Positions 2,230 through 32,003 of a DNA stretch of 64,000 bases are shown here, piece by piece. Location: the NCBI GenBank assembly GCA_043826455.1, contig JBDRQD010000048.1, forward strand, positions 32,001-96,000, given 5' to 3'. The first letter of the stretch is position 1. Each line of letters begins with the position of its first letter. The notes under the pieces were generated by a model. It searched no databases, had not been told where the DNA came from, and saw nothing but the letters and a program-made list of their open reading frames with translations. Made by a program: the position numbers and the translations under genes. Source of the stretch: Candidatus Bathyarchaeota archaeon (GTDB taxonomy: Archaea; Thermoproteota; Bathyarchaeia; TCS64).

Positions 2230-2254
2230 GTCTCCCCATACTGGTCTCAACCTG

Positions 2255-2260: not shown

Positions 2261-2284
2261 GATGATGAGAGCAGTGATACGTAC

Positions 2285-5988: not shown

Positions 5989-5996
5989 CACGGGCG

Positions 5997-6615: not shown

Positions 6616-6734
6616 AATATCGTACGTAATTACGCACGATATTCATCGTTTTTTGCAGAAACCATCCCCCTGAGGATGAGCTGATTTCTCTGTTGGCTTA
6701 ACAGGAATATTTTCGTATGTAATTACGTACGAAA
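6616..6734. repeat. Two related long palindromes (6616-6643 and 6711-6734)
   Basis: AATATCGTACGTAATTACGCACGATATT and TTTCGTATGTAATTACGTACGAAA, each with one mismatched pair; shared core CGTAYGTAATTACGYACG. Confidence 0.8.
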
Positions 6735-6792
6735 CCTTTGAGTTATAGCATCTAACCAACATAATTTATATCTCACCCGCCCCATCCTTTCA

Positions 6793-6885
6793 CCGCTAGA
6801 CAGGGAAGAATGAGACTATTGTGTACCTTAGCCTAACCAGGGTCTCACAAACGGCTGGCCTAGCGGGTTCTATGGAGGAAGCAAC
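6793..6885 (+). promoter_or_regulatory. Structured 5' leader of cysS containing a uORF
   Basis: TATA TTTATA 6765-6770; stems CCGCTAG(6793-99)/CTAGCGG(6860-66) and TGAGAC(6811-16)/GTCTCA(6842-47); SD GGAGG 6874-78. Confidence 0.6.
6810..6836 (+). CDS. Putative cysS leader peptide MRLLCTLA
   Basis: ATG AGA CTA TTG TGT ACC TTA GCC TAA, preceded by AGGGAAGA; contains a Cys codon. Confidence 0.45.
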   Translation: MRLLCTLA

Positions 6886-16066: not shown

Positions 16067-16168
16067 ACCTGAAGCCTCGGTTTCAACCTATAAAACATCA
16101 ACTATGAGGCTGCTCAGCCTCTGGAATGGGTTTAAAGGTAGGCTCCACACCCCTATCCGTGATTCCAA

Positions 16169-17137
16169 GTGAAGATCATTGAAGGCGTGCACCAGCTGGA
16201 GATACCCATGGAGAGGAACCCCCTGGGTAAGACCTTCAGCTACCTGCTGACAGAGTCCAAGACCTTGATAGACACGGGGGTGCCCACAGATTACGCCTAC
16301 AAGGGCCTCCAGAGGCAGCTGGAGGAGCACAGCCTCAAGCCCCAGGACATTGAGCGGGTCATCATAACGCATCTGCACAACGACCACATCGGACTCGCGC
16401 AGACGCTCCAGGAGCACGGTGCTGAGCTGGTTGCCAGCAGGGTCGCCGCGGAGAAGCAGGCCCAGGTGCAGGAGGAGTACAGGAACCTCTACGAGCTCAC
16501 CGTGGAGGAGACCCGGCTCTTCGGGGGCGCAGAGTACCTGAACTTCCTAGCCCGATTCGTGTACGCCTTTAGGGACGTCCCCCGGCCCCTCAAAATCGAC
16601 GGGACCCTGGAGGACGGTGAAACCTTCAGCCTGGATGGGTTCAGTTTCAAGGTGATCTGGACTCCGGGCCACAGCCATGAACATATAGTGCTATACGATG
16701 AGGCGGACAGGCTTCTCTTCAGCGGCGACCATGTTCTACCTAAGATCACCAGCCACGTGGCCCTCCACAGCTACGAGCACCGGGACCCCCTGGGCGAGTA
16801 CCTGGACAGCCTGGAGAAGGTGAAGGACCTAGACGTGGAGACGGTGCTGCCGGGCCACGAGTGGGCCTTCCATAACCTCAAGGAGCGCGTAGAGCAGCTC
16901 CGCTCCCACCACAGCAGGCGCCTCCAGGAGATGAGGGACACCCTCCAGGACGGCGAGAGGACCGTCTACCAGGTGGGCAGCAGAGTCCACTGGGACAGCC
17001 GTCCATGGCCCGAGATGAGCTTCTGGACCAAACGCATGGCCGCCACCGAGACCTACGCCCACCTAGTGTACCTGAGAAACAGAGGCGAGGTCAAAGAGGA
17101 GAAAAAGGGCGACACCCTGTACTACAGTTTAACTTGA
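16169..17137 (+). CDS. MBL-fold metallo-hydrolase with C-terminal wHTH-like tail
   Basis: IDTG, THLHNDHIG, TPGHS, SGDH, LPGH. Confidence 0.9.
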   Translation: MKIIEGVHQLEIPMERNPLGKTFSYLLTESKTLIDTGVPTDYAYKGLQRQLEEHSLKPQDIERVIITHLHNDHIGLAQTLQEHGAELVASRVAAEKQAQVQEEYRNLYELTVEETRLFGGAEYLNFLARFVYAFRDVPRPLKIDGTLEDGETFSLDGFSFKVIWTPGHSHEHIVLYDEADRLLFSGDHVLPKITSHVALHSYEHRDPLGEYLDSLEKVKDLDVETVLPGHEWAFHNLKERVEQLRSHHSRRLQEMRDTLQDGERTVYQVGSRVHWDSRPWPEMSFWTKRMAATETYAHLVYLRNRGEVKEEKKGDTLYYSLT

Positions 17138-17147
17138 GTGAAGGGGT

Positions 17148-17182
17148 GCCCCCTCCCCTCCCCAGGGAGGGGGCGGTTTTTT
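17148..17182. terminator. GC hairpin plus T-tract between convergent genes
   Basis: Perfect 10-bp stem GCCCCCTCCC/GGGAGGGGGC with 7-nt loop, followed by GGTTTTTT. Confidence 0.5.
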
Positions 17183-17205
17183 GGGGGAGTTATGGGGAGA
17201 GTGAT

Positions 17206-17868
17206 TCACCGCCAGACCTTGATGCCGCGCTCGTGGAGGTACTGGGCGGCCAGGTCCGCGATGTCTGGGCCCTTGAAGGGTATCTTCAGCTCCCTCACCT
17301 GGAGCATGATGTCCCTGTAGTTGATCTCCAGGGGTATACCCTTCTCGGCGAACTCGTCAAGGATGGTCTGGGCTACTTCCTCGGCCACCCTGAACTTGGG
17401 GCTCAGCATCCTGTAGTGGTGCTTCAGGGCGGTGCTGACCTCCTCCGGGGTGGCGCTGTCTATGGCCCACACCGTTGGCCGGGGGCCACCCTTGCTGCGC
17501 TTCACCTTGCTCACCTTCAGGGCGGGCACCACGACCCCCATGGCGCGGAGTCTCTTCAGGGCCCTGTATACGGTGGCCTCGGGCATGTTGAGCTCGCACT
17601 GGAGAACCCAGGCAGTGCTCGCGCCGTGGAGGCAGAAGTACAGGAACGCCTCGCTGACCGCGCTGCTGCTGAAGATCTTCTCGCTGAAGCTCATGAGCTC
17701 CTGGATATTCTTCAGGGTCGTGGCCAGGTCGTTCTTCTCGTTTAAGAGTAACAATTTCCGGAAAACATCTACATATTTGGCGAAGTTCGCCTCTCTCCCG
17801 CTGGGTACTCGGACCGAGCGTTTTTTATTCTTGGAGAGTGTCTTATCTAGGGCTACCGTGTTTGACAC
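17206..17868 (-). CDS. Winged-helix DNA-binding protein
   Basis: ELNMPEATVYRALKRLRAMGVV...GGPRPTVW wHTH pattern; start codon uncertain. Confidence 0.65.
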   Translation of the reverse strand: MSNTVALDKTLSKNKKRSVRVPSGREANFAKYVDVFRKLLLLNEKNDLATTLKNIQELMSFSEKIFSSSAVSEAFLYFCLHGASTAWVLQCELNMPEATVYRALKRLRAMGVVVPALKVSKVKRSKGGPRPTVWAIDSATPEEVSTALKHHYRMLSPKFRVAEEVAQTILDEFAEKGIPLEINYRDIMLQVRELKIPFKGPDIADLAAQYLHERGIKVWR

Positions 17869-17940
17869 TTACATCTAACTCCGGACTCCCCACCCGGGGC
17901 TAAAATGTAAACAGCCCCGATAAGTTTATAAGTATACTTG

Positions 17941-17988
17941 TTAACAAGTAAACAAGTTAACAAATAAACAGGTGCAACAGTAAACATG
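17941..17988 (+). repeat. Six tandem 8-bp units, consensus T(T/A)AACA(A/G)G
   Basis: TTAACAAG TAAACAAG TTAACAAA TAAACAGG TGCAACAG TAAACATG; the last unit contains the start codon of the downstream gene. Confidence 0.8.
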
Positions 17989-18429
17989 CCGCGTAAAACC
18001 GTCGCAATAAGGGGCCTGAACACGGATTTGTACAACGAGGTCTTCTCCATGGCCAAGAAGGACGGTAAGAACGTGGCCGACGTCGTCAACAACGCCCTCG
18101 AGGCCTTCATAAACGGTGAGGGTGATGACCCCGACGCCACCGTCAGCCTTGGTCAAGCATCTAACTCCGGACCAGAATTTGTATTGACCATCGACGACGA
18201 CGGCGAGGTGAGCCTTTCTAAGGAGGACATCAAGGAGATCGCCTCCGAGATGGGTCCCTTCGCCATCGAGAGCAACGGTAGCCTGGTTTTTGAGAAGGAC
18301 GTCGACAAGAACGCATTGCAGTGCATCAGCAGAATCACTGTGAAGTCGGGGACCGTCAAGGTCCCCAAGTCGGCCTACGCCCAATTCCTAATAAAGACCA
18401 AGATCCAAGGAAAACTCGACAAGTATTGA
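17986..18429 (+). CDS. Putative ribbon-helix-helix protein with beta-rich C-terminal domain
   Basis: KTVAIRGL (beta strand), then NTDLYNEVFSMAKKDG and NVADVVNNALEAF (two helices). Confidence 0.65.
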   Translation: MPRKTVAIRGLNTDLYNEVFSMAKKDGKNVADVVNNALEAFINGEGDDPDATVSLGQASNSGPEFVLTIDDDGEVSLSKEDIKEIASEMGPFAIESNGSLVFEKDVDKNALQCISRITVKSGTVKVPKSAYAQFLIKTKIQGKLDKY

Positions 18430-19025
18430 GACCCCATTATACGGTAGCGGGGGTCGAAGACGGCAGCTTCGAGGCTTTCCGCAGGGGCTCAGCGGATGCT
18501 GGCCAGTACACCTTACTTTGTTTAACAGTGATGCGGGGCTCTGTTATACAGGATGTGCGGCTCCGCAGGATACTTGTGGATGGGCTGGACGCCACGGATG
18601 CTTTGTTAAACATGTTATCGGGGCTGGATGTGGACGCCATCATTCTTGGAGGCGTCACCTTCGGGGGCTTCAACGTGGCAGATGTTGAACAAATACACCG
18701 CGCAACAGACACCCCTATAATAGTTTTCAGCACGGAGCGCCCCGACGTGGAGGCAACCCTTGGCGCTCTCAGTAAACATTTCAGTGACTGGCGTGAGCGG
18801 TGGAGGCGCTACGAGGCCCTGGGCCCGCTCCACAGTTTGAGGATGGGCGACTGGCCTGAAGTGTTCTACGAGGCTGTGGGTTGTTCAGCGGAGCTGGCCG
18901 AGAAGATCATTAGAGACCAAGCCTTAACCTCCAGGACCCCTGAGGCGCTCCGTGTGGCTAATATGGTTGCAAAGGGTCTCAGTTTAGTCGTTCAAGGTCT
19001 AGAGGTATGTGCTGATGGGTCATGA
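18426..19025 (+). CDS. DUF99/UPF0215 family protein (EndoV-like fold)
   Basis: AGVEDGSF, VDGLDAT, GGVTFGGFNV, RTPEALRVA; TTG start overlaps the upstream TGA. Confidence 0.85.
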   Translation: MRPHYTVAGVEDGSFEAFRRGSADAGQYTLLCLTVMRGSVIQDVRLRRILVDGLDATDALLNMLSGLDVDAIILGGVTFGGFNVADVEQIHRATDTPIIVFSTERPDVEATLGALSKHFSDWRERWRRYEALGPLHSLRMGDWPEVFYEAVGCSAELAEKIIRDQALTSRTPEALRVANMVAKGLSLVVQGLEVCADGS

Positions 19026-20445
19026 GGTTATAGACGGAGATGACCCCGGGCGTAGGCTCCAGCTTCATGCGCTTCTGGAAGGGCGTCTGGTCCTGGAAGC
19101 TGCCTGAGCAGATGAGGGATAAGCCGTGGTACTTCCTCATCTCGTGGATGTGGATGTGGCCGCAGACAACCACGTCAGGTATGGTGTCTACCACCAGGCG
19201 GTCCACCTTCTCGGGGGCTATGGGCGTGCTCTGCCCGTAGATGGGGGCGACGTGGCGGCACCTCATGAGGAGCTCCAGGCCTTTCACCGGGCTGTGGAAG
19301 TCGTAGCCCGGGGTGGAGCTCAGTATATCGTCCAGGGCTTTGCCGTGGAAGATGAGAGCCTTGACTCCGTGGAGGCTCAGGTTGCACGGGTTTGGCAGCA
19401 GGTGTATCCTAGGGTCCTTGTATAGGGCTGGGGCGTACTTTTCGGGGATGGGGGGCTGGGGTAGGCTGCGCCTCACGGCGTCGTGGTTCCCCGGTATGAC
19501 GAGTATCTCTACGTGCTCAGGAAGCTGGGACAAGAGCCGGGCGGCCTCCTCGTACTGGGCCTTCTGGGTGGTGATGGTGAGCTCGTCCAGCTGCTCAGGG
19601 TAGATGCCTATGCCGTCCACCAGGTCACCTGTAACTACCAGGTACTTCACTAAGCCGGCCAGCTCCCTGCTGGCCGGTGGCCCCAGGTCCCTGTTCATCC
19701 ACTTGATGAACTTGTCGAAGAGGTCGGCCCGGAAGTACTTGCTGCCCACGTGGATGTCTCCCACGAATACGGCGCACACGTTCTCATCGGCCCGGCTTAT
19801 GTCGTGCATGGGGACGTCGGGCCATATGAGGTCGTTGGCTATGATGAGGTCGTCCCTGTACTTGAGGCCGTCCACGCATATGATCTGGTCGTCCAGGATC
19901 TCCAGGCCTTTCCTGGAGACCTCCTCCCCTGACACCATGACGGTGACGCTGGTGTCAGGGTCCTCCAGGTCCAGGAATAGGCGGCTGCTCCTTGTGCTCT
20001 TGCCAGCCACCAGGCCGATGGTCTTGAACTTGGTTTTCACAGGCTGCTTCACGGCCTGGCTGAGGGGGATGGCGTCCCTGACATCGAACCTGTTCTTGAG
20101 TATGGCCTCCAGCTGTCTGAACCTGCTGTTGAAGTAGTCGATGAAGCCGTTCACGTCCCCCACAGGCTGGGACTCCCTGCCTGAGAGAAGCTCTATCCTC
20201 GACTGGAGCCGGGCTACTGGGGGTTTCATTGCTGGACGGGTCTGCTTGTGCTCCTCGAGGCCTCGCAGGAACTCCTCGTCTATTATGAATAGGTCTGGCC
20301 GAGTCTCAGCCGCTTCCAAGGCTCTCCTGATCACCTTGTCCAGCCTTTCGGCGGGCATGGACTGTAGGAGGTTGAAGGCCTCCGGGGTCAGCTGTAAACC
20401 GACCTCTATGATCTTGTTGATGACTGGTTGGAGTTCCTGTGTCAA
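18979..20445 (-). CDS. polB: DNA polymerase D small subunit DP1 (3'-5' exonuclease)
   Basis: OB fold plus calcineurin-like motifs GDIHVG, GDLVDGIGIYP, PGNHD, FHG, RHVAPIYG, GHIH. Confidence 0.95.
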   Translation of the reverse strand: MTQELQPVINKIIEVGLQLTPEAFNLLQSMPAERLDKVIRRALEAAETRPDLFIIDEEFLRGLEEHKQTRPAMKPPVARLQSRIELLSGRESQPVGDVNGFIDYFNSRFRQLEAILKNRFDVRDAIPLSQAVKQPVKTKFKTIGLVAGKSTRSSRLFLDLEDPDTSVTVMVSGEEVSRKGLEILDDQIICVDGLKYRDDLIIANDLIWPDVPMHDISRADENVCAVFVGDIHVGSKYFRADLFDKFIKWMNRDLGPPASRELAGLVKYLVVTGDLVDGIGIYPEQLDELTITTQKAQYEEAARLLSQLPEHVEILVIPGNHDAVRRSLPQPPIPEKYAPALYKDPRIHLLPNPCNLSLHGVKALIFHGKALDDILSSTPGYDFHSPVKGLELLMRCRHVAPIYGQSTPIAPEKVDRLVVDTIPDVVVCGHIHIHEMRKYHGLSLICSGSFQDQTPFQKRMKLEPTPGVISVYNLMTHQHIPLDLERLN

Positions 20446-20454
20446 CCTTGTTCC

Positions 20455-20796
20455 TTATCTCACCTTGATGACGTAGTCGGTCCTGGGTGGGGCGAAGGTC
20501 TCTATGATGACGGCGGGCTCCTTGCCCGTGGTCTCAAACTTGTGCTCCTCGTTGGGCTGGAGGAACCAAGCTGCCCCAGGCTTGGCCTTCACCTTCCGGG
20601 CTCGGGTGCTTAGCTCCCCAGCCCCCGATAGGAGGGTGCCCATCTGCTCGTGGGGGTGGCTGTGCCAGTCCACCACGGCTCCTGGCTGGATGACTATGTA
20701 GCACTGGGTGGCGTGCATGCCGTTTCCTATTACGCTTATCTTTACTCCGGGTACGGGTTCGAAGCTCGGGGCTTTCTCCCATGTCGTGTCCTGCAT
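20455..20796 (-). CDS. Cupin domain protein
   Basis: HSHPHEQ and PNEEH cupin metal-binding motifs. Confidence 0.85.
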   Translation of the reverse strand: MQDTTWEKAPSFEPVPGVKISVIGNGMHATQCYIVIQPGAVVDWHSHPHEQMGTLLSGAGELSTRARKVKAKPGAAWFLQPNEEHKFETTGKEPAVIIETFAPPRTDYVIKVR

Positions 20797-20832
20797 GGGC
20801 AGAGAATAGGTGGCGAGGGTATATGAATTAAG

Positions 20833-21513
20833 CTAGAGGCCTATGGTTGCCTCTCTTTTCTCCAGGAGGAGGTCCTTGATCTCCTTTCTCACGGCGTACC
20901 TGTAAGGCATGCTGTTGGTGTTGCGGTCTATGAAGCCGCTGTCGTAGAGCTTCTTGAGGAGCCTGGCCGTGTGCTCCCGGGTCTTGTTGATCTTGTCCCT
21001 GATCTCGGGGACGGAGCCCTCATCTAGGTCCATGATCATCTGGAGGACCTCCAGCTCCGTGTCGGTGAGCCTCTGGAAGATGTCCTCTCCCTGAACGGGG
21101 ATGGGGGCGTCCACTGGGGTGGCGGCGGGGGCAGCGGCTCTCGGTAGGGACGCTAGCTTCTGGAGTTCGCCCCGCATCTTCTCGATGCTGCCCTCTATGT
21201 TTTCGACTCTGCCTGAGAGCTCCTTCACCTTCTCCAGCTCTTGGAGGGCGGCCTCGCTTGTTCCTTGCCCGGCCTTCAGGGCCTCAGCGGCCATGTACTT
21301 GGCCTGGATGGCGTCGCCCTCAATTTTTTGGAGGCCTGACTCCATCTTCTTCACCTGGCGGGTGAACCCGGAGGTGATGTTCATTACTGACTCCTTGCTG
21401 CCCTCGTACTCGGCCTGAGCCATTTTGATGCGCTTGTAGAATATGTAGCTGGCCACTATGGTCACCGTGAACAGCGCTATGGTTGTGAAAACCAGCTCCA
21501 ATTCTTTCCCCAT
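20833..21513 (-). CDS. Membrane-anchored coiled-coil protein with C-terminal winged helix
   Basis: N-terminal TM (LVFTTIALFTVTIVASYIFY), heptad-like middle, Pro/Ala linker, LTDTELEVL...KTREHTARLLKKLYDSGFIDR. Confidence 0.8.
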   Translation of the reverse strand: MGKELELVFTTIALFTVTIVASYIFYKRIKMAQAEYEGSKESVMNITSGFTRQVKKMESGLQKIEGDAIQAKYMAAEALKAGQGTSEAALQELEKVKELSGRVENIEGSIEKMRGELQKLASLPRAAAPAATPVDAPIPVQGEDIFQRLTDTELEVLQMIMDLDEGSVPEIRDKINKTREHTARLLKKLYDSGFIDRNTNSMPYRYAVRKEIKDLLLEKREATIGL

Positions 21514-21611
21514 GATAGTTGTGACAGTCACCCCTTTTTACCGTTTCGTATCAGAAGATGATTCTATGTTAATATTCGAAATGATCTTTTCATAGGACAA
21601 TCGTAGTGATA

Positions 21612-21628
21612 GTAAACGATTCGTTTAC
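21612..21628. promoter_or_regulatory. Perfect 17-bp inverted repeat, candidate operator
   Basis: GTAAACGA-T-TCGTTTAC in the divergent wHTH/hypF intergenic region. Confidence 0.55.
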
Positions 21629-21689
21629 CTGGCTCCGAGCTTGTTGCCCATAGTTTAAATTACGCTGTTCATCATAGACGTGAATACCG

Positions 21690-24014
21690 TTGAGTTCTGG
21701 CGGAAAGGTTGAGGCGAAGGTAAGCATCACGGGCAGGGTCCAGGGGGTAGGCTTCAGGCCCTTCATCTACAGGATGGCCGCCAGGAACGGGCTCAGGGGA
21801 TACGTGATTAACCTTGGGGACGCTGGGGTTGAGGCCGTCGTGGAGGGCACAGAGCCCCAGGTTAAAAGGTTCCTCGACGATGTCAGAGAGAGCGCCCCAG
21901 AGGTCTCCGAGATCGAGGACATCTCGTACGAGCTCAAGCCCTATAGGGGCAGGTTCAAGGGTTTCCGGATCGATAAGAGCCAGAACCGCGGAAAAGTCGC
22001 CTCAGGCATTTTTCCGCCGGACATAGGCATTTGCCCCCAATGCCTCGCCGACATGGCTACTCCTAGGGGTCGGTGGTACGATTACCCTTTCACCGCCTGC
22101 GCCTGGTGCGGGCCTAGGTTCACGGGCGTCAACGCCCTGCCCTACGACAGGGAGAGGACTCACATGCACGGGTTCCCCATGTGCAGCGACTGCCACGGAG
22201 ACTACTATGATCCCATGGACAGGCGGTTCGACGCCCAGGGCATGACCTGCAGCCAGTGCGGGCCCACCATGAGCCTTCACGACAGCGAAGGGAGACTGCT
22301 TGAGACGGAGGACATCTTCACTGAGACAGCTAAACTTCTGCTGGAAGGTAGCATCGTCGCCGTGAAGGGCATCGGCGGCGTACACCTCGCCTCGCTTGCC
22401 ACCCGAGACGACATCATCGAGGAGTTCAGGAGGCGTAAACGCCGTCCCTACCAGCCCTTCGCCTTGATGTCACCCAGCCTCGATGACGTTGAGATTTATT
22501 CGGAGTTCACATCAGATGAGAGAAGGTTCCTGGTGTCTTGGCGTAAACCCATCGTTTTGCTGAAGAAGAGGTTTAAGGTCATCTCGGAGCTGGTTGCCCC
22601 GGGCCTGGACAGGGTGGGCGTGATGCTCCCCTACACGGGGATCCAGACCATGCTCTTCAGACGGCTGAGTGAGCCGGCCCTGATAATGACCAGCGGAAAC
22701 AAGCCTGGACTGCCCATGGCAATAACAAACGAGGCCGCGTTCAAGGAGCTGGGTGGCCTGGCGGACTATTTTCTGCTTCACAACAGGGACATCGTCAACA
22801 GGAGTGATGACTCCGTTCTCAGAGTTATCAGGGGTCATCCGTCATTTACTAGGCGCTCCAGGGGCTACGTTCCTGACCCGATTGATATTCCTTTCAAGAA
22901 GGGCACATGTATCGCATTGGGGGCGGAGCTCAGGAACGCGGCGGCTGTGGCCACCAATGGCAAGGTCTTCATGACCCAGTATCTCGGAGACACCGTTAAC
23001 CTTGAGGGCTTGGAGTTCGAGAAGCATGCCCTGCACATCATGTGTGACCTGCTAAATATCACACGTAACCCGGATGTGATTGGCTGTGACCTGCACCCAG
23101 AGTATATGACATCACAGTACGCTCAAGTGATATCACAGGAGATAGGTGTTGAAGCCGTGAGGTCACAACACCATCACGCCCATATAGCCTCAGTTATGGC
23201 GGAAAACATGGTTCCAGCGGAGGAAGAGGTACTGGGTATCGCTTTGGATGGCGCGGGATACGGCCAAGATACGCAAATTTGGGGCGGAGAGGTACTAAAA
23301 TCAACATACTCGGGCTTCGAGAGGCTCGGACAACTAGAATACCTACCCATGCCCGGAGGAGATCAATGCGCCTATTATCCCTACAGGATGCTTGTGGCCG
23401 GCCTCACAAACATTGTCACAGATGATATTATACGTGATATCACAGAAAATCACGTCGAAAATGCGTTACCTCACGGTAAAAAAGAGCTGGAACTGATACT
23501 CAGACAGTCAAGAAAATTGGATGTGCTTAAAACTTCAGGGGCTGGGCGATTCCTGGATGCTGTGGCTTCTCTCCTTGATCTAACATATTACAGGACTTAT
23601 GAAGGCGAACCCGCTATGCGATTGGAGGCTTTAATCTCAAGGAATGTATCCGATACTTTACATTTCGAGCCCGAAATATCCGTTATAGATGAAGAATATA
23701 TCCTTAAAACATCAAATATACTCTATAATTATTTAATAAATAAAAATAGTCACAAATATGCCGATATTGCTTATTCTGCCCATAAATATTTGGCAGAAGG
23801 AATGAGCAACATAGTAATCTCTGCCTCAGAGGCAACTGGCATAAAAAAAGTCGCACTGTCTGGTGGAGTCTTGATCAACGAATTCATCGCAGAGACCATA
23901 CATCGAACTCTTTCAACCACCGGATTAGAGGTAATGTTCAATCGTAAAGTCCCTCCAGGTGACGGTGGGACAGCTCTTGGCCAGTGCTGTGTAGCCCTTT
24001 CATCTGTGATATGA
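21690..24014 (+). CDS. hypF: Carbamoyltransferase HypF
   Basis: Acylphosphatase GRVQGVGFRPF, two Zn fingers, YrdC-like KGIGG and MTSGN, CDLHPEY, QHHHAH, DGAGYG, PPGDGG. Confidence 0.95.
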   Translation: MSSGGKVEAKVSITGRVQGVGFRPFIYRMAARNGLRGYVINLGDAGVEAVVEGTEPQVKRFLDDVRESAPEVSEIEDISYELKPYRGRFKGFRIDKSQNRGKVASGIFPPDIGICPQCLADMATPRGRWYDYPFTACAWCGPRFTGVNALPYDRERTHMHGFPMCSDCHGDYYDPMDRRFDAQGMTCSQCGPTMSLHDSEGRLLETEDIFTETAKLLLEGSIVAVKGIGGVHLASLATRDDIIEEFRRRKRRPYQPFALMSPSLDDVEIYSEFTSDERRFLVSWRKPIVLLKKRFKVISELVAPGLDRVGVMLPYTGIQTMLFRRLSEPALIMTSGNKPGLPMAITNEAAFKELGGLADYFLLHNRDIVNRSDDSVLRVIRGHPSFTRRSRGYVPDPIDIPFKKGTCIALGAELRNAAAVATNGKVFMTQYLGDTVNLEGLEFEKHALHIMCDLLNITRNPDVIGCDLHPEYMTSQYAQVISQEIGVEAVRSQHHHAHIASVMAENMVPAEEEVLGIALDGAGYGQDTQIWGGEVLKSTYSGFERLGQLEYLPMPGGDQCAYYPYRMLVAGLTNIVTDDIIRDITENHVENALPHGKKELELILRQSRKLDVLKTSGAGRFLDAVASLLDLTYYRTYEGEPAMRLEALISRNVSDTLHFEPEISVIDEEYILKTSNILYNYLINKNSHKYADIAYSAHKYLAEGMSNIVISASEATGIKKVALSGGVLINEFIAETIHRTLSTTGLEVMFNRKVPPGDGGTALGQCCVALSSVI

Positions 24015-24021
24015 TGTGATA

Positions 24022-24480
24022 TCACACCATTTTGATGCTAGTGGGAGAACCTAAACGTGATATTCCCTCCACCAGTTCTGTCTCAATCTGTTTCAGAAGA
24101 TCCTTTGAAGCGTTTAACTCTCTGCTCTCCAGCATGATAACGTATTCTTTTAATTTTTCAGCTAAAAAATAATAGTCGTCGAAGGGCCTGGCCTCAAACA
24201 CACCGATATAACTCAACAAAACAATGGTAAAGATGCTTGAGATAACGTTACCACGAGCCTGAGCTAACGAGCGGCTAAATGAGCCCCTACTTACTTTTTT
24301 ACGTCTAAAATATGCTTTTTGATGAAAAGGGATTTTTTTATCTGATATTATGTCAGTTAGTAAATCAATTACAAGCGATTCAAATTGTACTCTTGTTAAA
24401 TTACTGTTTTTAAGTAATAGGTCTGATATCGGGTCCTGAAACGTTTTTTGGATAATATTTTGGTAATTCTCTGACGCCAA
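24022..24480 (-). CDS. Hypothetical protein, HTH-like
   Basis: 152-aa low-GC ORF; LTRVQFESL...KVSRGSFSRSLAQAR resembles an HTH recognition helix. Confidence 0.7.
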   Translation of the reverse strand: MASENYQNIIQKTFQDPISDLLLKNSNLTRVQFESLVIDLLTDIISDKKIPFHQKAYFRRKKVSRGSFSRSLAQARGNVISSIFTIVLLSYIGVFEARPFDDYYFLAEKLKEYVIMLESRELNASKDLLKQIETELVEGISRLGSPTSIKMV

Positions 24481-24610
24481 TCTAGGCTCGCCTCACAGTG
24501 ATATCACATTAACGAGATATAACGTTGTCTACAAAATCGTATACCAATGAGCGTGGTCTTGTATTGAAAGTGATTGCCTTCTACAACACTAAAACTTTAC
24601 GTTTTGATGC

Positions 24611-24656
24611 AATATACATGTAAATAGATTAATAATATTTATATAAAAATGTAAAT
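24611..24656. other. AT-rich element (DUE-like, or the nadE promoter)
   Basis: Only 4 G/C in 46 bp, with a pure A/T run at 24628-24650. Confidence 0.5.
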
Positions 24657-24703
24657 GGGCTGGATGGAAGTCTTTATTATCACTTAATTCAAGTCATCTA
24701 AAC

Positions 24704-25498
24704 ATGGTCACGGTCAAAGATCTAGAGATAAACTGCGAGAAAATTGAGCCAAAAATCAAAGAATTCATAGCTGACAACATTAAAAATGCAGGCCTAAAAG
24801 GAGCAGTCGTGGCTGTCAGCGGAGGAATAGACTCAGCCGTAGCCCTTTCACTGACAGTTAAGGCACTAGGCCCCGAGAAGGTCACAACTGTCACACTTCC
24901 AGACCGTGATGCGACACCTAAGCGTGATATCATGGATGTGATGCAACACTGTGAGAGCCTCGGCGTCACATGTAACACGGTGGATATCACGCCAATATTA
25001 CATGTGATACGTGATACGCTACCCCTCTATGACATCACAGACAGAATATCCAGCGGCAACATCAAATCCAGGCTCAGGATGATAGCGGCCTACCACTTCG
25101 CCAACAGGCTGAACCGGATGGTGATAGGCACCTCCAACAAGACCGAGCTCATTACAGGGTTCTTCACCAAACACGGCGACGGCGGAGTGGACCTGATGCC
25201 CCTTGCTGACCTCTACAAGACCCAGATAAGGCAGCTGGCCGGGCACCTCAACGTACCAAATGGCATCATCAGGAAGCCTCCGTCACCGGGGTTCTTTCCG
25301 GGGCAGACGGACGAAGGCGAACTGGGGATAGACTACACGACGCTGGACCTGATCCTCTTCAGCTTGGAGAAGGGTATGAGCGCCCAGATGATAGCAGAGG
25401 ATCTGAAAATTGAAGTTGATCAAGTTGAGGCTGTTCTGAGACGAATAAAAGCAAACGAACATAAACGGCGGCTTCCACTACTCTTAAGACTAACCTAG
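24704..25498 (+). CDS. nadE: NH3-dependent NAD+ synthetase
   Basis: SGGIDS, NIKSRLRM, GTSNKTE, GFFTKHGDG, LYKTQ, QTDE. Confidence 0.95.
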   Translation: MVTVKDLEINCEKIEPKIKEFIADNIKNAGLKGAVVAVSGGIDSAVALSLTVKALGPEKVTTVTLPDRDATPKRDIMDVMQHCESLGVTCNTVDITPILHVIRDTLPLYDITDRISSGNIKSRLRMIAAYHFANRLNRMVIGTSNKTELITGFFTKHGDGGVDLMPLADLYKTQIRQLAGHLNVPNGIIRKPPSPGFFPGQTDEGELGIDYTTLDLILFSLEKGMSAQMIAEDLKIEVDQVEAVLRRIKANEHKRRLPLLLRLT

Positions 25499-25526
25499 AG
25501 GACTCCTAACCAACAGAGGGAGCAAG

Positions 25527-25775
25527 ATGGGACGAAAAAGACAGAAAGTAGTCAAAATAATAAAGAGGAGACTGCCAGACCAGTACCTATGCCCCAACTG
25601 CGGCATGAACACGGTTGGCATCATAATTCACCCGAGCGAAGGCCTGGCCAGGATCATCTGCAGCAGCTGCTCCCTCAAGAACCAGTTCCCGGTCCCGGAG
25701 AACACCGACCCCGTAGACGCCTACTGTATCTTCGTGGACAAGTTCTACGGCGTTGAGGAGCCTCCGAAGCAATGA
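25527..25775 (+). CDS. elf1: Transcription elongation factor Elf1
   Basis: Basic N-terminus MGRKRQK, CPNCG...CSSC zinc ribbon, PVDAY. Confidence 0.85.
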   Translation: MGRKRQKVVKIIKRRLPDQYLCPNCGMNTVGIIIHPSEGLARIICSSCSLKNQFPVPENTDPVDAYCIFVDKFYGVEEPPKQ

Positions 25776-26521
25776 CCGGAAAAGTGGAGCAGTACCTACT
25801 CGACAAGATCAGGGAAGACGGCTGCATACACATCACACTGGTAGACCCCGACAAGAGCTCGGGCCACGACTGCGCAGCCACGGCTCACGAGGCCGAGAAG
25901 GGCGGCACAGCAGCCATCATGGTGGGCGGCTCAACCCTGGCAGCCAAGGAGGACCTGGACGCAGCCATCCAGAGGATAAACGAGAAGGTCGACGTGCCTG
26001 TGATCCTCTTCCCCAATGGCCCCATGGGGGTCAGCAGACACGCCGACGCCATCTGGTTCATGAGTCTGCTGAACAGCCAGAACACCTACTACATCATCGA
26101 CGCCCAGGTCATAAGCGCCCCACTGGTCAAAAGGTACGGCCTTGAGGCCATACCCATGGGCTACATAATTGCTGGGGAGGGCTGCGTGGCCGGCTACATA
26201 GGCCAGGCCAGGCTCATCAACTACAGGCACCCTGAGCTGGCCGTGGGGTACAGCCTGGCCGCTGAGAGCCTGGGCATGAGGTTCGTGTACCTGGAGGCGG
26301 GCTCAGGCGCCAGGGAACCCATACCTCCTGCGATGATAGGCGCGGTCAAGAAACACCTCAGCGTCCCGCTGGTGGTGGGTGGAGGCATCAGGTCCCCGGA
26401 AGCCGCGGCAGCCGCGAGCAAGGCTGGCGCGGACGCCATTGTGACTGGCACCCTAGTAGAGGAGGAGAATCAGATCAAGGATAAGATAGGTGCCCTCGTC
26501 CAGGCCATGAAGAAGACGTGA
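25772..26521 (+). CDS. Geranylgeranylglyceryl phosphate synthase (group II)
   Basis: TLVDPDK, MVGGS, ILFP, SLLNS, YLEAGSGA, VGGGIR, VTGT. Confidence 0.93.
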   Translation: MTGKVEQYLLDKIREDGCIHITLVDPDKSSGHDCAATAHEAEKGGTAAIMVGGSTLAAKEDLDAAIQRINEKVDVPVILFPNGPMGVSRHADAIWFMSLLNSQNTYYIIDAQVISAPLVKRYGLEAIPMGYIIAGEGCVAGYIGQARLINYRHPELAVGYSLAAESLGMRFVYLEAGSGAREPIPPAMIGAVKKHLSVPLVVGGGIRSPEAAAAASKAGADAIVTGTLVEEENQIKDKIGALVQAMKKT

Positions 26522-26600
26522 GCCGGCTCGAGTAAAAGTAAAGAGCCTTGAGCCACCAGTATCATACACCCACTTAGATAGCCCATAGGAAACCCCCAAG

Positions 26601-29600
26601 TTGATTGAAGTCCAGATGCCCCCGGCCTACAAGACGTACTTCAAAGAGTTAGAGGACAAGCTCAACAGCCTGTACGAGGTGGCGGAGGAGGCCCGGCTGA
26701 AAGGCCTGGACGCCGCCCTAAAGCCTGAGCCGGCGATAACCACGGACATCGCGGACCGGATCGAGAAGCTCATCGGTCCGCCGGGCATCACTCAGAGGAT
26801 GCGGGAGCTGGAGGGCATGGACCGCCAGGAGATGAGCTTCAAGATAGCCCAAGAGATAACGCTGGGCAGGTTCGGCTCCATGGAGCGGGAGAGAGCCGCG
26901 GACCAGGCCATCAGGACGGCCCTCGCCATCATGACCGAGGGAGTCACCATAGCCCCCATAGAGGGCATACCCAAGATCGTCATCAAACAGAACCCGGACC
27001 GCTCCGAGTATCTCAGCGTCTACTTCGCTGGCCCCATCAGGCCCGCCGGAGGAACCGCCCAGGCCCTCACCCTGGTCATCGCCGACGTCGTGCGGCGCTC
27101 CCTGGGGCTAGAAAAGTACCAGCCCAGCGAGGACGTCGTCAACAGGTTCATCGAGGAGGTTCGCATCTACGAGCGCAGCGTCAGACGGTTCCAGTACCAC
27201 GTCACCGACGAGGACCTGGAACTAGCCATGAAGCACATCCCCGTCGAGGCCACCGGCGTCTCCACCGACCCCTACGAGGCCTCTAACTACAGGGACGTCC
27301 CAGGAATCGAGACCAACAGGCTCAGGGGCGGCGCCCTTATAGTGGTCGTCGACGGCGTGGTCGGCCGCGCCCGCAAGCTCTGCGGTGTATGCGAGACCAT
27401 AGGCATAGATGGCTGGGACTGGCTCAACAAGCTGGGTAGGAAGAAGCCCAGCAACGGCGAGGAGGAGACCAGGAAGCCCACCGCGGCCTTCATGGAGGAG
27501 ATAATCGTGGGCCGCCCCGTGTTCAGCTTCCCCAACACCCCCGGCGGCTTCCGGCTCAGGTACGGCAGAGCCCGTACCACGGGGCTGGCCGCCTGCGGAG
27601 TCCACCCGGCCACCATGATCACCCTCAACGGCTTCATGACCACCGGCCTGCAGCTGAGGATAGAGCTGCCCGGCAAGTCAGCGGCCGTGTGCCCCGTGGA
27701 CACCATCGAGCCGCCCGTCGTACGCCTCAAGGACGGTAGCGTGGTGCGCGTGGACGACGAGGAGACGGCCCGCAGGGTCTACGACAGGGTTGACCGGATA
27801 CTGTTTAACGGCGATGTCCTCATCAACGCCGGGGACTTCATCCAGTTCAACCACCCGCTGCTGCCAGCCGGCTACGACGAGGATCAGTGGCGGTACGACA
27901 TTGAATTCGCCCTCGAGGCGCTCGGAGAGAAGCCTGTCGAGGAACTCACAGGGATCAGCGAGGAACGGATTCGTGGACTCCTGGGTGATTCCTCCGAGGC
28001 GCCGACGCCTGAGGAGGCCCTAGCCCTCACCAAGATAGATGCGCCCCTCCACCCCCGCTACACCTATGACTGGTCCAAGGTACCCATGCAGCGGCTGCTG
28101 AGCCTCAGGAACATGTTAGCCGAGGACTGGGGCGCCCCAGAGATAAAGCTGAGCCCTGAGGACAAGGAGGCCCTCGAGATTCTTCTGGTGCCCCACAAGA
28201 CGGAAAATGGCGGGGTGGTTCTGGAGGGGGCCGCCCCCATCCTTGAACGCTGCCTGGCCCTGGGCTCGAAGTACGTGGAGGCAAAGGAGGCTGAGCCCCT
28301 CGCCCAGGTGAACACATGGGCCGGCTTCAGGGTCATGGAGAAGGCCTACGTCTACGTGGGGGCCCGCATGGGCCGCCCCGAGAAAGCCAAGGAGAGGAAG
28401 ATGAACCCCTACGTCCACGGCCTGTTCCCCGTGGGCAACGCGGGTGGCCCCCAGAGGGACATCACCAGGGCCAGGCGCGGGGAGAAGGTCAGGGTCGAAC
28501 TGGCGCAGAGGGAGTGCCCAACGTGCGGCTACTACTCTACCACGCCGCTGTGCGAGAACTGCGGAGGCCTCACCAGGGTCACCAAGAAGTGCCCCCGGTG
28601 CAGGAGGCCCGTGGAGGGTGACAGGTGCCCAGCCTGCAACGTTGAACCCGTGATGTATGAGACGTTGGAGCTGGACCTCCGCGAGGAGCTGGAGAAGGCA
28701 CGCAGGCACGTAGGTGGCAGCATCCCTGACAGGATCAAGTGCGTCAAGAGGCTGATGAACAAGGCCAGGATGCCGGAGCACCTGGGCAAGGCCATACTCA
28801 GGGCCCGGTACGACCTCAGCGTGTTCAAGGACGGCACCCTACGGTACGACCTCACGGACATACCACTGACCCACTTCAAGCCCTCCGAGGTGGGGGTCCC
28901 AGTGGATAGGCTGCGTGAGCTGGGGTACACCCACGACGTGGACGGAGAACCCCTGACCCGGGGCAGCCAGATGCTGGAGCTTATGGTCCAGGACGTGGTT
29001 CTGCCCGAGGACTGTGGCGACTACCTGGTCAAGGCAGCCAGGTTCCTGGACGACGAGCTGCGCGACTTCTACAAGTTGGAGCCCTACTACAAGGTGGAGA
29101 ACAGGAACCAGCTGGTGGGCCACATAATTGTCGGGTTGGCGCCTCACACCTCCGCCTCCATAGTGGGCCGCCTCATAGGTTGGAGCAAGGTGAGGAACTG
29201 CTACGCCCACCCCTACTGGCACGCGGCCAAGCGCAGGAACTGCGACGGCGACGAGGACGCCGTGCTTTTAGCCCTGGACCCGCTGCTCAACTTCTCCAAG
29301 GCCTATCTCCCCGAGCAGAGTGGCGGCCTCATGGATGCGCCCCTATTCATAATACCCAACCTGAACCCCGAGGAGGTGGACAAGGAGAGCCACAACATGG
29401 ACGTCGTGGGCAGGTACCCGCCCGAGTTCTACGACATGACCATGAGGAGGGCCAAGCCGGGCGACTTCGAGGGACTGGTGGACACCCTGGGCGGCAGGCT
29501 GGGCACCCAGGCCCAGTACGCGGGCTTCAGCTACACCAAGGAGTGCAGCGACATCAACCTCGGAAGCCACCTCGGCGCCTACACCACCCTGCAGACTATG

Positions 29601-30026
29601 CTGGACAAGCTGGATAGCCAGCTGGACCTCACCAGGAAGCTGCGAGCCGTGGACGGCCAGACCGTAGCCCTGAAGATACTGAACAGCCACTTCATGAAGG
29701 ACATTGTCGGTAACCTCCGCGCCTTCACACGCCAGGGCTTCAGGTGCAGCAAATGCAACAAGAAGTTCAGGAGGCCCCCGCTGAAGGGCGGCTGCGACAG
29801 GTGCGGAGGCAACATAATCATGACGGTGCACAGGGGCGGGATAGAGAAGTACCTGGACCCCGCCGCCAAGATAGTGGACAAGTACAACCTGGGGGACTAC
29901 TACAGCGACAGGTTAGAGCTGGTGAGGGAGGAGCTGGACAGCATCTTCGTGGACGAGAAGCCCAAGGAGGATGAGCCCACCCAGTTTAACCTCACCGACT
30001 TCATGAGGCCCAAGGAGAAGAGGTAA
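26601..30026 (+). CDS. polC: DNA polymerase D large subunit DP2, no intein
   Basis: AGPIRPAGGTAQA, GGFRLRYGR, RMGRPEKA, KDGTLRYD, LAPHTS, KRRNCDGDED, C-terminal Zn finger. Confidence 0.97.
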   Translation: MIEVQMPPAYKTYFKELEDKLNSLYEVAEEARLKGLDAALKPEPAITTDIADRIEKLIGPPGITQRMRELEGMDRQEMSFKIAQEITLGRFGSMERERAADQAIRTALAIMTEGVTIAPIEGIPKIVIKQNPDRSEYLSVYFAGPIRPAGGTAQALTLVIADVVRRSLGLEKYQPSEDVVNRFIEEVRIYERSVRRFQYHVTDEDLELAMKHIPVEATGVSTDPYEASNYRDVPGIETNRLRGGALIVVVDGVVGRARKLCGVCETIGIDGWDWLNKLGRKKPSNGEEETRKPTAAFMEEIIVGRPVFSFPNTPGGFRLRYGRARTTGLAACGVHPATMITLNGFMTTGLQLRIELPGKSAAVCPVDTIEPPVVRLKDGSVVRVDDEETARRVYDRVDRILFNGDVLINAGDFIQFNHPLLPAGYDEDQWRYDIEFALEALGEKPVEELTGISEERIRGLLGDSSEAPTPEEALALTKIDAPLHPRYTYDWSKVPMQRLLSLRNMLAEDWGAPEIKLSPEDKEALEILLVPHKTENGGVVLEGAAPILERCLALGSKYVEAKEAEPLAQVNTWAGFRVMEKAYVYVGARMGRPEKAKERKMNPYVHGLFPVGNAGGPQRDITRARRGEKVRVELAQRECPTCGYYSTTPLCENCGGLTRVTKKCPRCRRPVEGDRCPACNVEPVMYETLELDLREELEKARRHVGGSIPDRIKCVKRLMNKARMPEHLGKAILRARYDLSVFKDGTLRYDLTDIPLTHFKPSEVGVPVDRLRELGYTHDVDGEPLTRGSQMLELMVQDVVLPEDCGDYLVKAARFLDDELRDFYKLEPYYKVENRNQLVGHIIVGLAPHTSASIVGRLIGWSKVRNCYAHPYWHAAKRRNCDGDEDAVLLALDPLLNFSKAYLPEQSGGLMDAPLFIIPNLNPEEVDKESHNMDVVGRYPPEFYDMTMRRAKPGDFEGLVDTLGGRLGTQAQYAGFSYTKECSDINLGSHLGAYTTLQTMLDKLDSQLDLTRKLRAVDGQTVALKILNSHFMKDIVGNLRAFTRQGFRCSKCNKKFRRPPLKGGCDRCGGNIIMTVHRGGIEKYLDPAAKIVDKYNLGDYYSDRLELVREELDSIFVDEKPKEDEPTQFNLTDFMRPKEKR

Positions 30027-30071
30027 GAAAACCTTATTATTCCAGCCCCGTGTACCCTTTGGCGAACAACT

Positions 30072-30245
30072 ATGAGCAAGAAAAAGAAGCAAAGCAGCGC
30101 CGGTATGCCTCAGAGCAGCGCCGGACTAATGAGGTTCTTCCAGGACGAGACGAACGGGGTCAAGATTCCGCCGGAGTTCGTGATTGGCGCTTCAGTGGTG
30201 CTCATAGCTGCAGTGGTACTCGCCCGGGTGTTCTTCCCTTTTTAG
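30072..30245 (+). CDS. secG: Preprotein translocase subunit Sec61beta (absent from ORF track)
   Basis: Hand translation: MSKKKKQSSAGMPQSSAGLMRFFQDETNGVKIPPEFVIGASVVLIAAVVLARVFFPF. Confidence 0.9.
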   Translation: MSKKKKQSSAGMPQSSAGLMRFFQDETNGVKIPPEFVIGASVVLIAAVVLARVFFPF

Positions 30246-30316
30246 AGCACCCGTCGGCTCCGAGGACGACGCAGCCTCACATTGTTCACATTTATCGCAT
30301 CTAAAGGAGCTCAAAG

Positions 30317-30619
30317 GTGGAGAGACAGATATCAAGCAGTGAACCCAGGAAGAGAAACGTGGTCATAATGGGCATTAAACCCATAATGAACTACGTGGTG
30401 GCCTGCCTGACCCTGTTCAACGCCGGCGCCGAGACGGTGCTCATAAGGGCCCGTGGCAAGCACATCAACAAGGCGGTAGACCTGGTGGAGCTCCTCAGGA
30501 GGGTGTTCCTCAAGGACGCCGTAATCAGGAACATCAGGGTGAGCACTGACAATTTAAAACGGGACGACGGCAATGAGGCCCACGTCTCCGTCATCGAGAT
30601 AACCCTCTCCCCCAGCTAA
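30317..30619 (+). CDS. albA: Alba DNA/RNA-binding protein
   Basis: GIKPIMNYV, IRARGKHINKAVD, VSVIEITL. Confidence 0.9.
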   Translation: MERQISSSEPRKRNVVIMGIKPIMNYVVACLTLFNAGAETVLIRARGKHINKAVDLVELLRRVFLKDAVIRNIRVSTDNLKRDDGNEAHVSVIEITLSPS

Positions 30620-30659
30620 GGCAGCCTTTTAAAGCCGAGAAACAGAGTTCAGAGGAAGG

Positions 30660-32003
30660 GTGTCAACTTTGACATATCCAAAGATAAAAGTAACACCGCC
30701 CGGCCCCAAGGCCAAGAAGATCGTTGAGAGGGACGCGGCGGTCATATCCCCCAGCTTCGGTAGAGCCTACCCCCTGGCAATAGAGCGAGGCGAGGGCAAC
30801 ATAGTCATCGACGTAGACGGCAACGAGTTCATAGACATGAACGCGGGCCTAGCCGTCTGCAATGTGGGCCACAGCCACCCCAAGGTGGTGAAAGCCATCA
30901 AGGACCAGGTGGACAAGTTCATCCACTACAGCTACACGGACTTCTACTACGACGACTACGTGAACCTGGGCGAGACCCTCCACGACCTGGTGCCGGGTAA
31001 ACACAAGAAAAAGTTCTTCTACGGCAACAGCGGCGCCGAGGCCATCGAGGCCGCCATAAAGGTGAGCCGCTGGCACAGCCAGAGGCAGGGCCTGCTAGCC
31101 TACATAGGCAGCTTCCACGGCCGCACCATGGGCGCCGTCAGCCTGACCGCGTCCAAGCCCTACCAGAGGCGCAGGTTCAGCCCCCTGGTGCCCGGCGTTG
31201 AGCACATCTTCTACCCGTACTGCTATAGGTGCCCGTTCCACCTGGAGTGCCCCAGCTGCAACTATGCCTGCGTAGACTACATCGACGAGTACCTGTTCCA
31301 CAAGTACGTGCCCGGAGAGGAGGTGGCCATGCTGCTGGCGGAGCCCATCCAGGGCGAGGGCGGCTACGTGGTGCCCCCCGACGGCTACTTCAAGAAGCTG
31401 AAGAAGCTGCTGGACGAGAATGGCATCCTGTTCGCCGTGGACGAGGTGCAGTCAGGCATCGGCCGCACGGGGAAGTGGTTCGCCATAGAGCACTGGGGCG
31501 TGGTGCCGGACATCGTGTGCATGGCTAAGGGCATCGCCGCGGGCATGCCGTTAGGCGTCATGGCGTCCCGGGCCGACATCCAGGACTGGACACCGGGCAG
31601 CCACGCATCCACCTTCGGCGGCAACCCGGTGAGCTGCGCCGCGGCCCTGGCTGTCATCGACATCATCAAGTCGGAGAAGCTGCTGGAGAACGCCCAGAGA
31701 GAGGGCGGTTACATCAAGAAGCGGCTGGAGGAGATGATGGAGAAGCACCCCATGATAGGTGACGTCCGAGGCAAGGGCCTCATGGTGGGCGTGGAGCTGG
31801 TGAAGGACAAGGACAGCAAGGAGTACGCCAGGAAGGAGACGGAGGACGTGATGATGGAGTGCTTCAGGCAGGGACTGGCTATCGTCAACTGCGGCGTCAA
31901 CGTCATCCGTTGGATGCCCCCACTGACCATAACCCGGGACCTGGTGGAGCCCAGCCTGGAGATATTCGAGAGGAGCCTCAGCAAGGTGGAGAAGGGCAAA
32001 TAA
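30660..32003 (+). CDS. Class III PLP aminotransferase (4-aminobutyrate/acetylornithine family)
   Basis: NSGAEA, FHGRT, EPIQGEGG, DEVQSG, MAKG, HASTFGGN. Confidence 0.92.
   Translation: MSTLTYPKIKVTPPGPKAKKIVERDAAVISPSFGRAYPLAIERGEGNIVIDVDGNEFIDMNAGLAVCNVGHSHPKVVKAIKDQVDKFIHYSYTDFYYDDYVNLGETLHDLVPGKHKKKFFYGNSGAEAIEAAIKVSRWHSQRQGLLAYIGSFHGRTMGAVSLTASKPYQRRRFSPLVPGVEHIFYPYCYRCPFHLECPSCNYACVDYIDEYLFHKYVPGEEVAMLLAEPIQGEGGYVVPPDGYFKKLKKLLDENGILFAVDEVQSGIGRTGKWFAIEHWGVVPDIVCMAKGIAAGMPLGVMASRADIQDWTPGSHASTFGGNPVSCAAALAVIDIIKSEKLLENAQREGGYIKKRLEEMMEKHPMIGDVRGKGLMVGVELVKDKDSKEYARKETEDVMMECFRQGLAIVNCGVNVIRWMPPLTITRDLVEPSLEIFERSLSKVEKGK

Follow-up and report, generated by a model that had tools for sequence, protein, structure and literature searches.

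A compact palindrome array that tracks a two-gene pair at an ancestral archaeal origin region: a putative centromere-like anchor

Introduction

The described systems closest to the element reported here are those that anchor chromosomal DNA, namely RicO/ricS of Staphylococcus aureus and the likewise related anchors RacA/ram and RocS. As outlined in the preprint on RicO (bioRxiv 10.64898/2026.03.06.710092), this protein combines a DNA-binding domain, a coiled coil and a membrane end, recognizes sequence-specific sites near the origin, and is proposed to anchor the origin to the membrane. In archaea, the SegAB system of Sulfolobus, as summarized in PMC8682754, has centromere-like, 23-bp imperfect palindromes beside the gene of their binder, the ribbon-helix-helix protein SegB, which forms an extended inter-site complex, and an adjacent ATPase gene, segA; the role of SegAB in archaeal segregation is described as not understood in a 2024 review (PMC7617429). 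Here we report on an array of short palindromes, spread over about 2 kb, in a 64,000-nucleotide stretch of contig JBDRQD010000048.1 from a Candidatus Bathyarchaeota archaeon (positions 32,001 to 96,000; hereafter the window), and on two neighboring genes, X and W, with which the array occurs. Two proteins of the locus fall in protein clusters whose taxa likewise point to Bathyarchaeia.

The window belongs to a genome of 2.95 Mb (G000), in which the array lies on contig C48; the codes used for families, orders, genomes, loci and contigs (f, G, L and C numbers) are working handles. An initial annotation of this DNA had proposed that the palindromes form a centromere- or origin-like protein-binding field, and the work described here follows up that proposal.

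Results

The palindromes form a symmetric field at a single locus

The core of the array is the palindrome (T)GTGAYRTCAC(A), a consensus built from 172 sites in 38 loci; the matrix used for scanning was trained on loci that carry both X and W. The perfect 10-mer GTGATATCAC occurs four times in the window, at 23127, 23434, 24016 and 24498, compared with 0.03 expected, and an exact count gives no further copy there, both as reported in the initial annotation. The whole genome holds five copies, four within 23127-24507 and the fifth on contig C77. When up to two mismatches are allowed, the richest 2-kb window of the genome has 11 sites, and no window elsewhere has more than 4. Within 23040-25040 we observed 4, 5, 12 and 25 sites at no more than 0, 1, 2 and 3 mismatches, respectively, far above the maxima of 1, 2, 5 and 19 (means 0.004, 0.07, 1.1 and 9.1) in 1000 dinucleotide shuffles of the same segment, which disposes of local composition as the cause. 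The earlier tally of at least 11 near-matches proved too high, there being 8 at two mismatches or fewer, with 11 reached when three-mismatch sites are admitted. Over the whole window, 23 sites with up to two mismatches compare with 19.8 by chance, i.e. there is no excess, and the signal is the clustering of the sites, not their window-wide number. The hexamer GTGATA is likewise concentrated in the array (17 copies, against 1.05 expected from AT-matched genome windows). The clustering was borne out genome-wide: the matrix gave nine strong matches, eight of them within the array (the median for 40 control matrices with permuted columns was 6.5 genome matches), and the array is thus a single locus and not part of a regulon; a global regulon was rejected on this ground.

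Distances between close sites peak at 10 and 21 bp. A second unit, ATCAC-N6-RTTAC-RY-GTGAT, has two exact copies in the genome, one on each strand (Table 1), which point outward about 950-980 bp on each side of the central site and have their midpoint at 24033, 13 bp off that site; their uniqueness is partly by construction, since the pattern was derived from these two copies. Among 30 family loci, both end modules are present at no more than two mismatches in 25 of the 26 full-length loci, and each of the 4 incomplete loci shows the end module of the arm that it covers. These modules were absent from the initial annotation.

In other orders, the upstream module, there with RTCAC in its middle, is found at no more than one mismatch in 8 of 28 loci, and the array includes inverted ATCAC-N2-GTGAT pairs as well as direct repeats at 7 bp. 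The trough of AT-rich DNA in the array contrasts with a window of about 59% GC, and extends to the third codon positions of X. Loci of the window's order have more strong sites than those of other orders (4.5 versus 2.7; 17 and 28 loci) and a deeper trough (-0.21 versus -0.08 in the same loci, a comparison confounded by genome GC content and kinship). At one locus (L037, G050:C15), the sites spread over ~5 kb from hypF to Elf1, across inserted DNA, rather than over 2 kb.

We met no description of the motif or of the X-W pair in the open literature searched; closed papers and supplements lay outside its scope, and an earlier mention of the two genes near the thaumarchaeal origin is possible. 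The array is a real, and apparently undescribed, element of the chromosome.

Table 1. Features of the palindrome array and its surroundings (window positions)
Feature	Position	Strand	Remarks
Whole field	23058-25008	.	~1.95 kb; two-fold symmetric GTGAY/RTCAC half-sites
Left end module, ATCAC-N6-RTTAC-RY-GTGAT	23058-23080	-	in hypF; silent positions 23066 and 23078 conserved
Extra phased half-site beside left end module	23086		
Core site ATGACATCAC in hypF	23106-23115	.	21 bp to next site; ≤1 mismatch to GTGAYRTCAC in 26/28 loci
Perfect core site in hypF	23127-23136	.	≤1 mismatch in 26/28 loci
Weaker core site	23157-23166	.	encodes S of RSQHHHAH; ≤1 mismatch in 18/28 loci
Perfect core site in hypF	23434-23443	.	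582 bp from center; ≤1 mismatch in 28/28 loci
Central site (24016-24025) with degenerate tandem copy at 24006	24006-24025	.	overlaps X TGA stop
Gene X	24022-24480	-	152 aa; all-helical; HTH-like residues 25-90
Perfect core site	24498-24507	.	18 bp upstream of X; varies among relatives
Core-site pair in nadE	24906-24933	.	~890-910 bp from center; 24906 (degenerate here) and 24924; ≤1 mismatch in 26/31 and 27/31 loci
Right end module in nadE, outward	24986-25008	+	silent position 25006 invariant
Outlying core site ATGACATCAC	25029-25038	.	poorly conserved; ≤1 mismatch in 11/30 loci
AT-rich trough	23501-25000	.	37-41% GC
Gene W	20833-21531	-	transmembrane helix, long helix, winged HTH; start may be ATG at 21513
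hypF	21690-24014	+	carries left arm
nadE	24704-25498	+	carries right arm
PolD small subunit (DP1)	18979-20445	-	ancestral origin-locus landmark
PolD large subunit (DP2)	26601-30026	+	ancestral origin-locus landmark

Selection acts on the DNA independently of the host genes

Conservation at silent positions, compared over 24-30 related loci per position, points to selection on the DNA: the seven four-fold degenerate positions that lie in motifs have a mean majority base of 0.87, versus 0.49 at 177 others (p 3e-5, a nominal value, as kin are not independent), and of the eight other four-fold positions that reach at least 0.9, seven lie in or beside half-sites. The initial annotation had suggested synonymous constraint as a mark of such a field, and had seen the sites as mostly lying within coding sequence in varied frames. 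The second view held in part: the sites occupy codon offsets 0 and 1, and in G048 a site as far from the center as that at 23434 falls in a different hypF frame; only two of the four perfect sites, however, are within hypF, that at 24498 being intergenic and the central one overlapping the X stop codon. Its suggestion that the sites bend the encoded proteins stands for HypF, with S-Q-H-H-H in 8 of 9 loci of the window's order and V-Q-H-H-H in all 13 other HypF sequences, but not for the VDIT of NadE, since DIT also occurs in NadE remote from the array.

The array persists where the host genes differ, as anticipated. Several relatives lack hypF and still have sites between X and W, and in five family loci without hypF the sites are in several hundred bp of non-coding DNA, the poorest 500 bp of which has 21-24% GC in L031, L046, L114 and L115. 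The upstream, nadE-side arm is found in nadE or, in other orders, within an aminotransferase gene or in intergenic DNA. The array is a selected DNA signal that is independent of its host genes. A recent insertion of hypF was considered and dropped, because hypF adjoins W in distant families too.

Sites occur where both X and W are present

Gene X was detected in 48 of 61 relatives and in 105 of the 201 phylum genomes, and nearly every genome with a match has just one copy. Within the class, a site with no more than one mismatch overlaps the X stop codon at 31 of 40 loci. Its model (pLDDT 91) is all-helical, without strands. No Pfam or NCBIfam family was found for X, sequence searches of Pfam and of solved structures were empty, and Foldseek returned nothing at E ≤ 0.001; a wide fold search reached Z 6-7 only, with generic helical hairpins and three helix-turn-helix (HTH) domains over residues 25-98. 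Gene W was found in 114 of the 201 genomes; searches of genomes from f6, f52 and f54 gave none. Its product has a C-terminal winged HTH with an invariant R-E-H-x-x-R, a long helical stalk predicted to be coiled-coil-like, and a hydrophobic helix at the N-terminus, seen in 28 of the 32 rows aligned, the other 4 ending short of the start. With only ~12 residues before the transmembrane helix, W is without an outside sensor domain. Its fold matches include AspA of pNOB8 (PDB 5K5Q; 11% identity) among many tied MarR/ArsR-type matches.

Co-occurrence was scored, with sites counted within 1.1 kb, at 89 loci with X or W, five loci with neither being left out. Strong sites are present in 58 of the 59 loci that have X and a membrane W, in 4 of 6 that have X and a soluble W, in none of 7 with X only, and in none of 17 with W only. 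In loci with X and membrane W, 179 sites lie in the 237 kb near the genes, versus 8 in the 638 kb farther off, and where insertions part the X-W pair from the origin recognition boxes (ORBs) of other orders, the sites stay with X and W. The array is therefore a companion of the X-W pair and not of hypF, nadE or DP1-DP2. The expectation that the cluster persists at the DP1-DP2 locus held in so far as that locus is the origin region with orc1-1 and ORBs in other orders, but the array does not follow DP1 and DP2 themselves. The initial annotation had also named the proteins encoded at 24022-24480 and 20833-21513 as possible binders; X and W are the best candidate readers of the motif, either or both.

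Soluble W homologues without a detected X adjoin ORB-like boxes, often together with hypF, at L117-L132 (f36, f49, f51, f57, f58), which makes W an origin-linked gene in a large part of the phylum. At the W start (21521-21531) there is one GTGAC-A-GTCAC palindrome, which is not conserved in the eight other loci compared.

The locus is the ancestral oriC1 region

Elsewhere in the class, the usual order is DP1, (an endonuclease gene), orc1-1, ORBs, W, the sites, X, Elf1, GGGP synthase and DP2; f31 and other families have the same gene order with one or two sites. The orc1 gene of this arrangement scores 411 bits against Sulfolobus Orc1-1. In G109, a single contig, strand skew puts the origin at 100-140 kb (p 0.012), where orc1-1 lies at 114 kb and X at 120 kb. 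This gene order and the G109 skew identify the locus as the ancestral oriC1 region. The skew test was codon-corrected and used 20 sampled blocks, amounting to under a fifth of each genome; skew is weak in these GC-rich genomes, and the power of the test is low.

The window's order departs from this arrangement. An Orc1-1-type gene (a match at E ≤ 1e-110) was found in 1 of its 52 genomes searched, versus 133 of the other 149 in the phylum, and no ORB-pattern match was found in window positions 16001-32000 or in the loci of the order, whereas other orders are positive by the same pattern; the G000 genome has three loose, scattered matches. The lone Orc1-1-type gene of the order (L107, G087:C37) is on a 3.7-kb contig with ORBs and is possibly mis-binned or mobile. 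G000 keeps one orc paralogue (27% identity; C60:1923-3092), which is nearest to Pyrobaculum Cdc6 and has ACTTTC upstream, as in G036, G018 and G048. We infer from these sequence features that the retained paralogue is Orc1-2, which in Sulfolobus, according to the outline in PMC6061795, is a damage regulator that binds ANTTTC. The element ACTTTCAC, which resembles this Sulfolobus damage-response box, is conserved upstream of the Orc1-2-like gene in L053, L054, L055 and L056, with none at that place in L057.

Skew gives no support to a working origin at the array in the window's order. No skew switch was found at the array of G036 (p 0.37, with the sign opposite to that expected), the 700 kb followed in G146 show no consistent switch, and the sign does not change in G000; raw cumulative skew on C48 and C15 and codon-corrected skew in 25-kb bins carried no information. 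The right flank is more G/T-rich than the left in four of five genomes (G000, G146, G130 and G167, not G036), the direction expected of an origin, as seen in single noisy blocks. Overall, the skew results lower an origin reading for this order.

Two unannotated genes upstream of the endonuclease gene, encoding a winged-helix-like protein of 220 aa (17206-17868, minus strand) and a protein of 147 aa (17986-18429, plus strand), occupy the place of orc1-1 in other orders. The 147-aa gene is present in 22 of 25 genomes of the order versus 7 of 76 outside it, and a run of TGTWAACA-like repeats at 17930-17985, behind a TTTATAA-like box, precedes it in 13 of 15 loci (two incomplete); the repeats are probably its own operator. 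Its product, the sole candidate with a ribbon-helix-helix-like start, was considered as an omega-like binder and rejected, having no omega match (the sole one being a repeat artefact), an order-biased distribution and its own, different upstream repeat. Contig C48 also has AT-rich islands (1-8000; 257860-258444) of down to 25% GC, the second of which holds the best ParA-like match of G000, a location that suggests a mobile element.

Discussion

The array is unique and symmetric, is under selection, occurs solely where X and W are both present, and lies a few kb from orc1-1 and the ORBs in orders that retain these. We tentatively favor, with somewhat less than even confidence, the reading that it is a putative centromere-like anchor, confined to one locus, by which the origin region would be tethered to the membrane. 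On this model, dimers of X, via its HTH, and/or of W, via its winged HTH, would occupy the core palindromes. The inverted end modules, with their phased half-sites, would allow X and/or W to oligomerize, and the AT-rich 2 kb might be wrapped or looped into one complex. The transmembrane helix and helical stalk of W would hold this complex at the membrane, and new origin copies could thereby be positioned and separated before division.

Several observations weigh against such an anchor. There is no ParA-like ATPase gene near the array: PF13614 matches in G000 are ~200 kb away on C48 and on C76, those in G036 and G109 are at least 200 kb from X or on another contig, and G367 has none at E ≤ 1e-10. 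The anchor is accordingly envisaged without a motor, since no ParA-like gene is linked to it. Bacterial origin anchors, as outlined for RicO, use sites over hundreds of kb (nine ricS in ~700 kb; bioRxiv 10.64898/2026.03.06.710092). Outside the class there are usually just one or two sites, W is without a transmembrane helix in several families, and in the 16 kb examined for f38 and f43 neither orc1 nor polD accompanies the X-W pair and its site. The co-occurrence counts, moreover, represent few lineages, depend on a matrix trained on X+W loci, and include L081 and L133, which are two contigs of one genome.

The array might instead comprise main and auxiliary operators, brought together by looping, through which X and W as a joint regulator would control their own expression and perhaps that of nadE, hypF or replication genes, an explanation that we regard as doubtful. 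Far operators of the lac and deo type act by such DNA looping, X and W both have regulator-type HTH folds, a site lies 18 bp upstream of X, most sites of other orders are between the X stop and the W start, and one or two sites are the rule outside the class. In hypF-bearing members of the window's order, however, the W promoter is 2.5 kb from the center and has no conserved site in nine loci, sites are retained deep within the 3' half of hypF, and, among the four perfect sites, the one upstream of X varies most. As there is no regulon elsewhere, the pair would control little beyond itself; an operator needs neither symmetric end modules nor an AT trough, and W has no outside domain with which to sense a signal.

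A role in initiation, with the array serving oriC1 as an accessory arm across most of the class and being itself the working origin in the window's order, appears unlikely. Here, DNA would unwind in the AT-rich region between the inverted end modules, with X or W as a WhiP-like initiator. The near-absence of Orc1-1-type genes from the order and of ORB matches from its loci, the features of the remaining paralogue, which are as expected for Orc1-2, the larger array and deeper AT trough, and the G/T-rich right flank all fit this explanation. But the skew test that locates the origin in G109 gives none at the G036 array, G146 has no consistent switch and the sign stays the same in G000; other orders have the element together with intact ORB origins, up to ~5 kb off; the trough comparison is confounded as stated above; and Orc1-1 loss has precedents, having been inferred for Thermoproteales by Raymann et al., as outlined in PMC3914693. 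A bolder combination, in which the system is an ancient archaeal origin-membrane link whose enlarged array became the replication start in this order once Orc1-1 and the ORBs were gone, served by a membrane-held winged-helix initiator unrelated to Orc1/Cdc6, seems to us quite improbable. The nucleoprotein platform of the initial annotation survives as a selected, single-locus, putatively protein-binding field, whereas its proposed part in initiation finds no support in skew.

We consider it very unlikely that the array, with no direct membrane role, serves SMC or another chromosome-folding machine as a place of loading or as a boundary close to the origin. A single origin-proximal site with loop-like symmetry would suit such a function, and parS loads SMC in bacteria, but no SMC-related gene was identified among the neighbors and the conserved transmembrane helix of W would be left without explanation. 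Explanations by chance, by AT-rich composition, by transfer of a patch of DNA or by constraint on the proteins can be set aside as having negligible probability, for, although the region is AT-rich and DIT is common in NadE anyway, silent-site conservation and local shuffles refute them, in line with the AT-matched background, the intergenic copies and the class-wide position.

The putative origin-to-membrane anchor is of interest in that both the site and two candidate proteins are precisely named, at a locus that stays the same throughout a very abundant class; other classes of the phylum have a reduced form. The latter classes include the family of G367, the sampled genome of which has no ParA-like match, and which we infer to be one of marine ammonia oxidizers with cultured members. 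A whole order, moreover, appears to have lost its main initiator and the ORBs yet to have kept and enlarged this element, which raises the question of how its replication starts.

Comparison with known systems

The initial annotation likened the sites to matS, SlmA-binding sites (SBS) and ram, and the likeness holds in that matS and SBS are short palindromes tolerated in genes, with GTGAC/GTCAC arms in matS that are alike; it fails on distribution. Sites of the matS, SBS and ram type are spread over long stretches, matS being macrodomain-dispersed, terminus-linked and built with a 3-bp spacer, whereas the array is confined to 2 kb and linked to the origin. The ATCAC core is shared with omega/parS of pSM19035 (as outlined in PMC9499535), as are, in the arrays of other orders, the 7-bp direct repeats and inverted ATCAC-N2-GTGAT pairs. 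Omega, however, is a ribbon-helix-helix protein that, in the same account, needs 7-10 contiguous WATCACW heptads; the unit here is a spacerless GTGAY-RTCAC, there are no contiguous heptad runs of half-sites in the array, and no omega-like protein tracks the motif. AspA of pNOB8 (PDB 5K5Q), like W on the anchor reading, is an archaeal winged-helix protein on a centromere, but it is plasmid-borne and has no membrane helix.

With respect to Orc1-1/ORB origins and WhiP-oriC3 (as summarized in PMC4010727), the array shares an AT-rich stretch between inverted repeats beside the gene of a DNA-binding protein, and its locus is the oriC1 locus of other orders. It differs in having no ORB match, no orc1-1, repeats in coding sequence over 2 kb and no skew mark; library searches gave no match named WhiP for X or W, the WhiP sequence itself not being part of the comparison. 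Like ParABS and SegAB, the array has few palindromic sites in one origin-proximal cluster and, as in SegAB, these are archaeal, centromere-like palindromes beside the gene of a candidate binder, with an extended inter-site complex being conceivable here too. In place of the SegB fold, site and adjacent ATPase, the locus has HTH and winged-HTH proteins, a core of 10-12 bp and no adjacent ATPase, and neither the all-helical X nor the winged-HTH W gave a ParB or SegB family match in the library searches. The sites are thus distinct from both ORB- and SegB-type sites, as had been proposed at the outset.

By prediction, W follows the plan of RicO and RacA, i.e. a DNA-binding domain, a coiled coil and a membrane end in one protein, and both RicO/ricS and the array have sequence-specific sites near an origin. 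The likeness is one of design; no homology was found, a direct comparison not being part of the analysis. As outlined for RicO, its membrane end is an amphipathic C-terminal helix, versus an N-terminal transmembrane helix in W, and a single protein serves there where the archaeal locus has a two-gene pair. No dispersed sites of the RicO kind were found in G036 or G109, where other exact matches are few and far away, and, instead of 18-bp sites scattered widely, there is one 2-kb field. X, W and the array would work most like RicO/ricS, but in a compact, two-component form.

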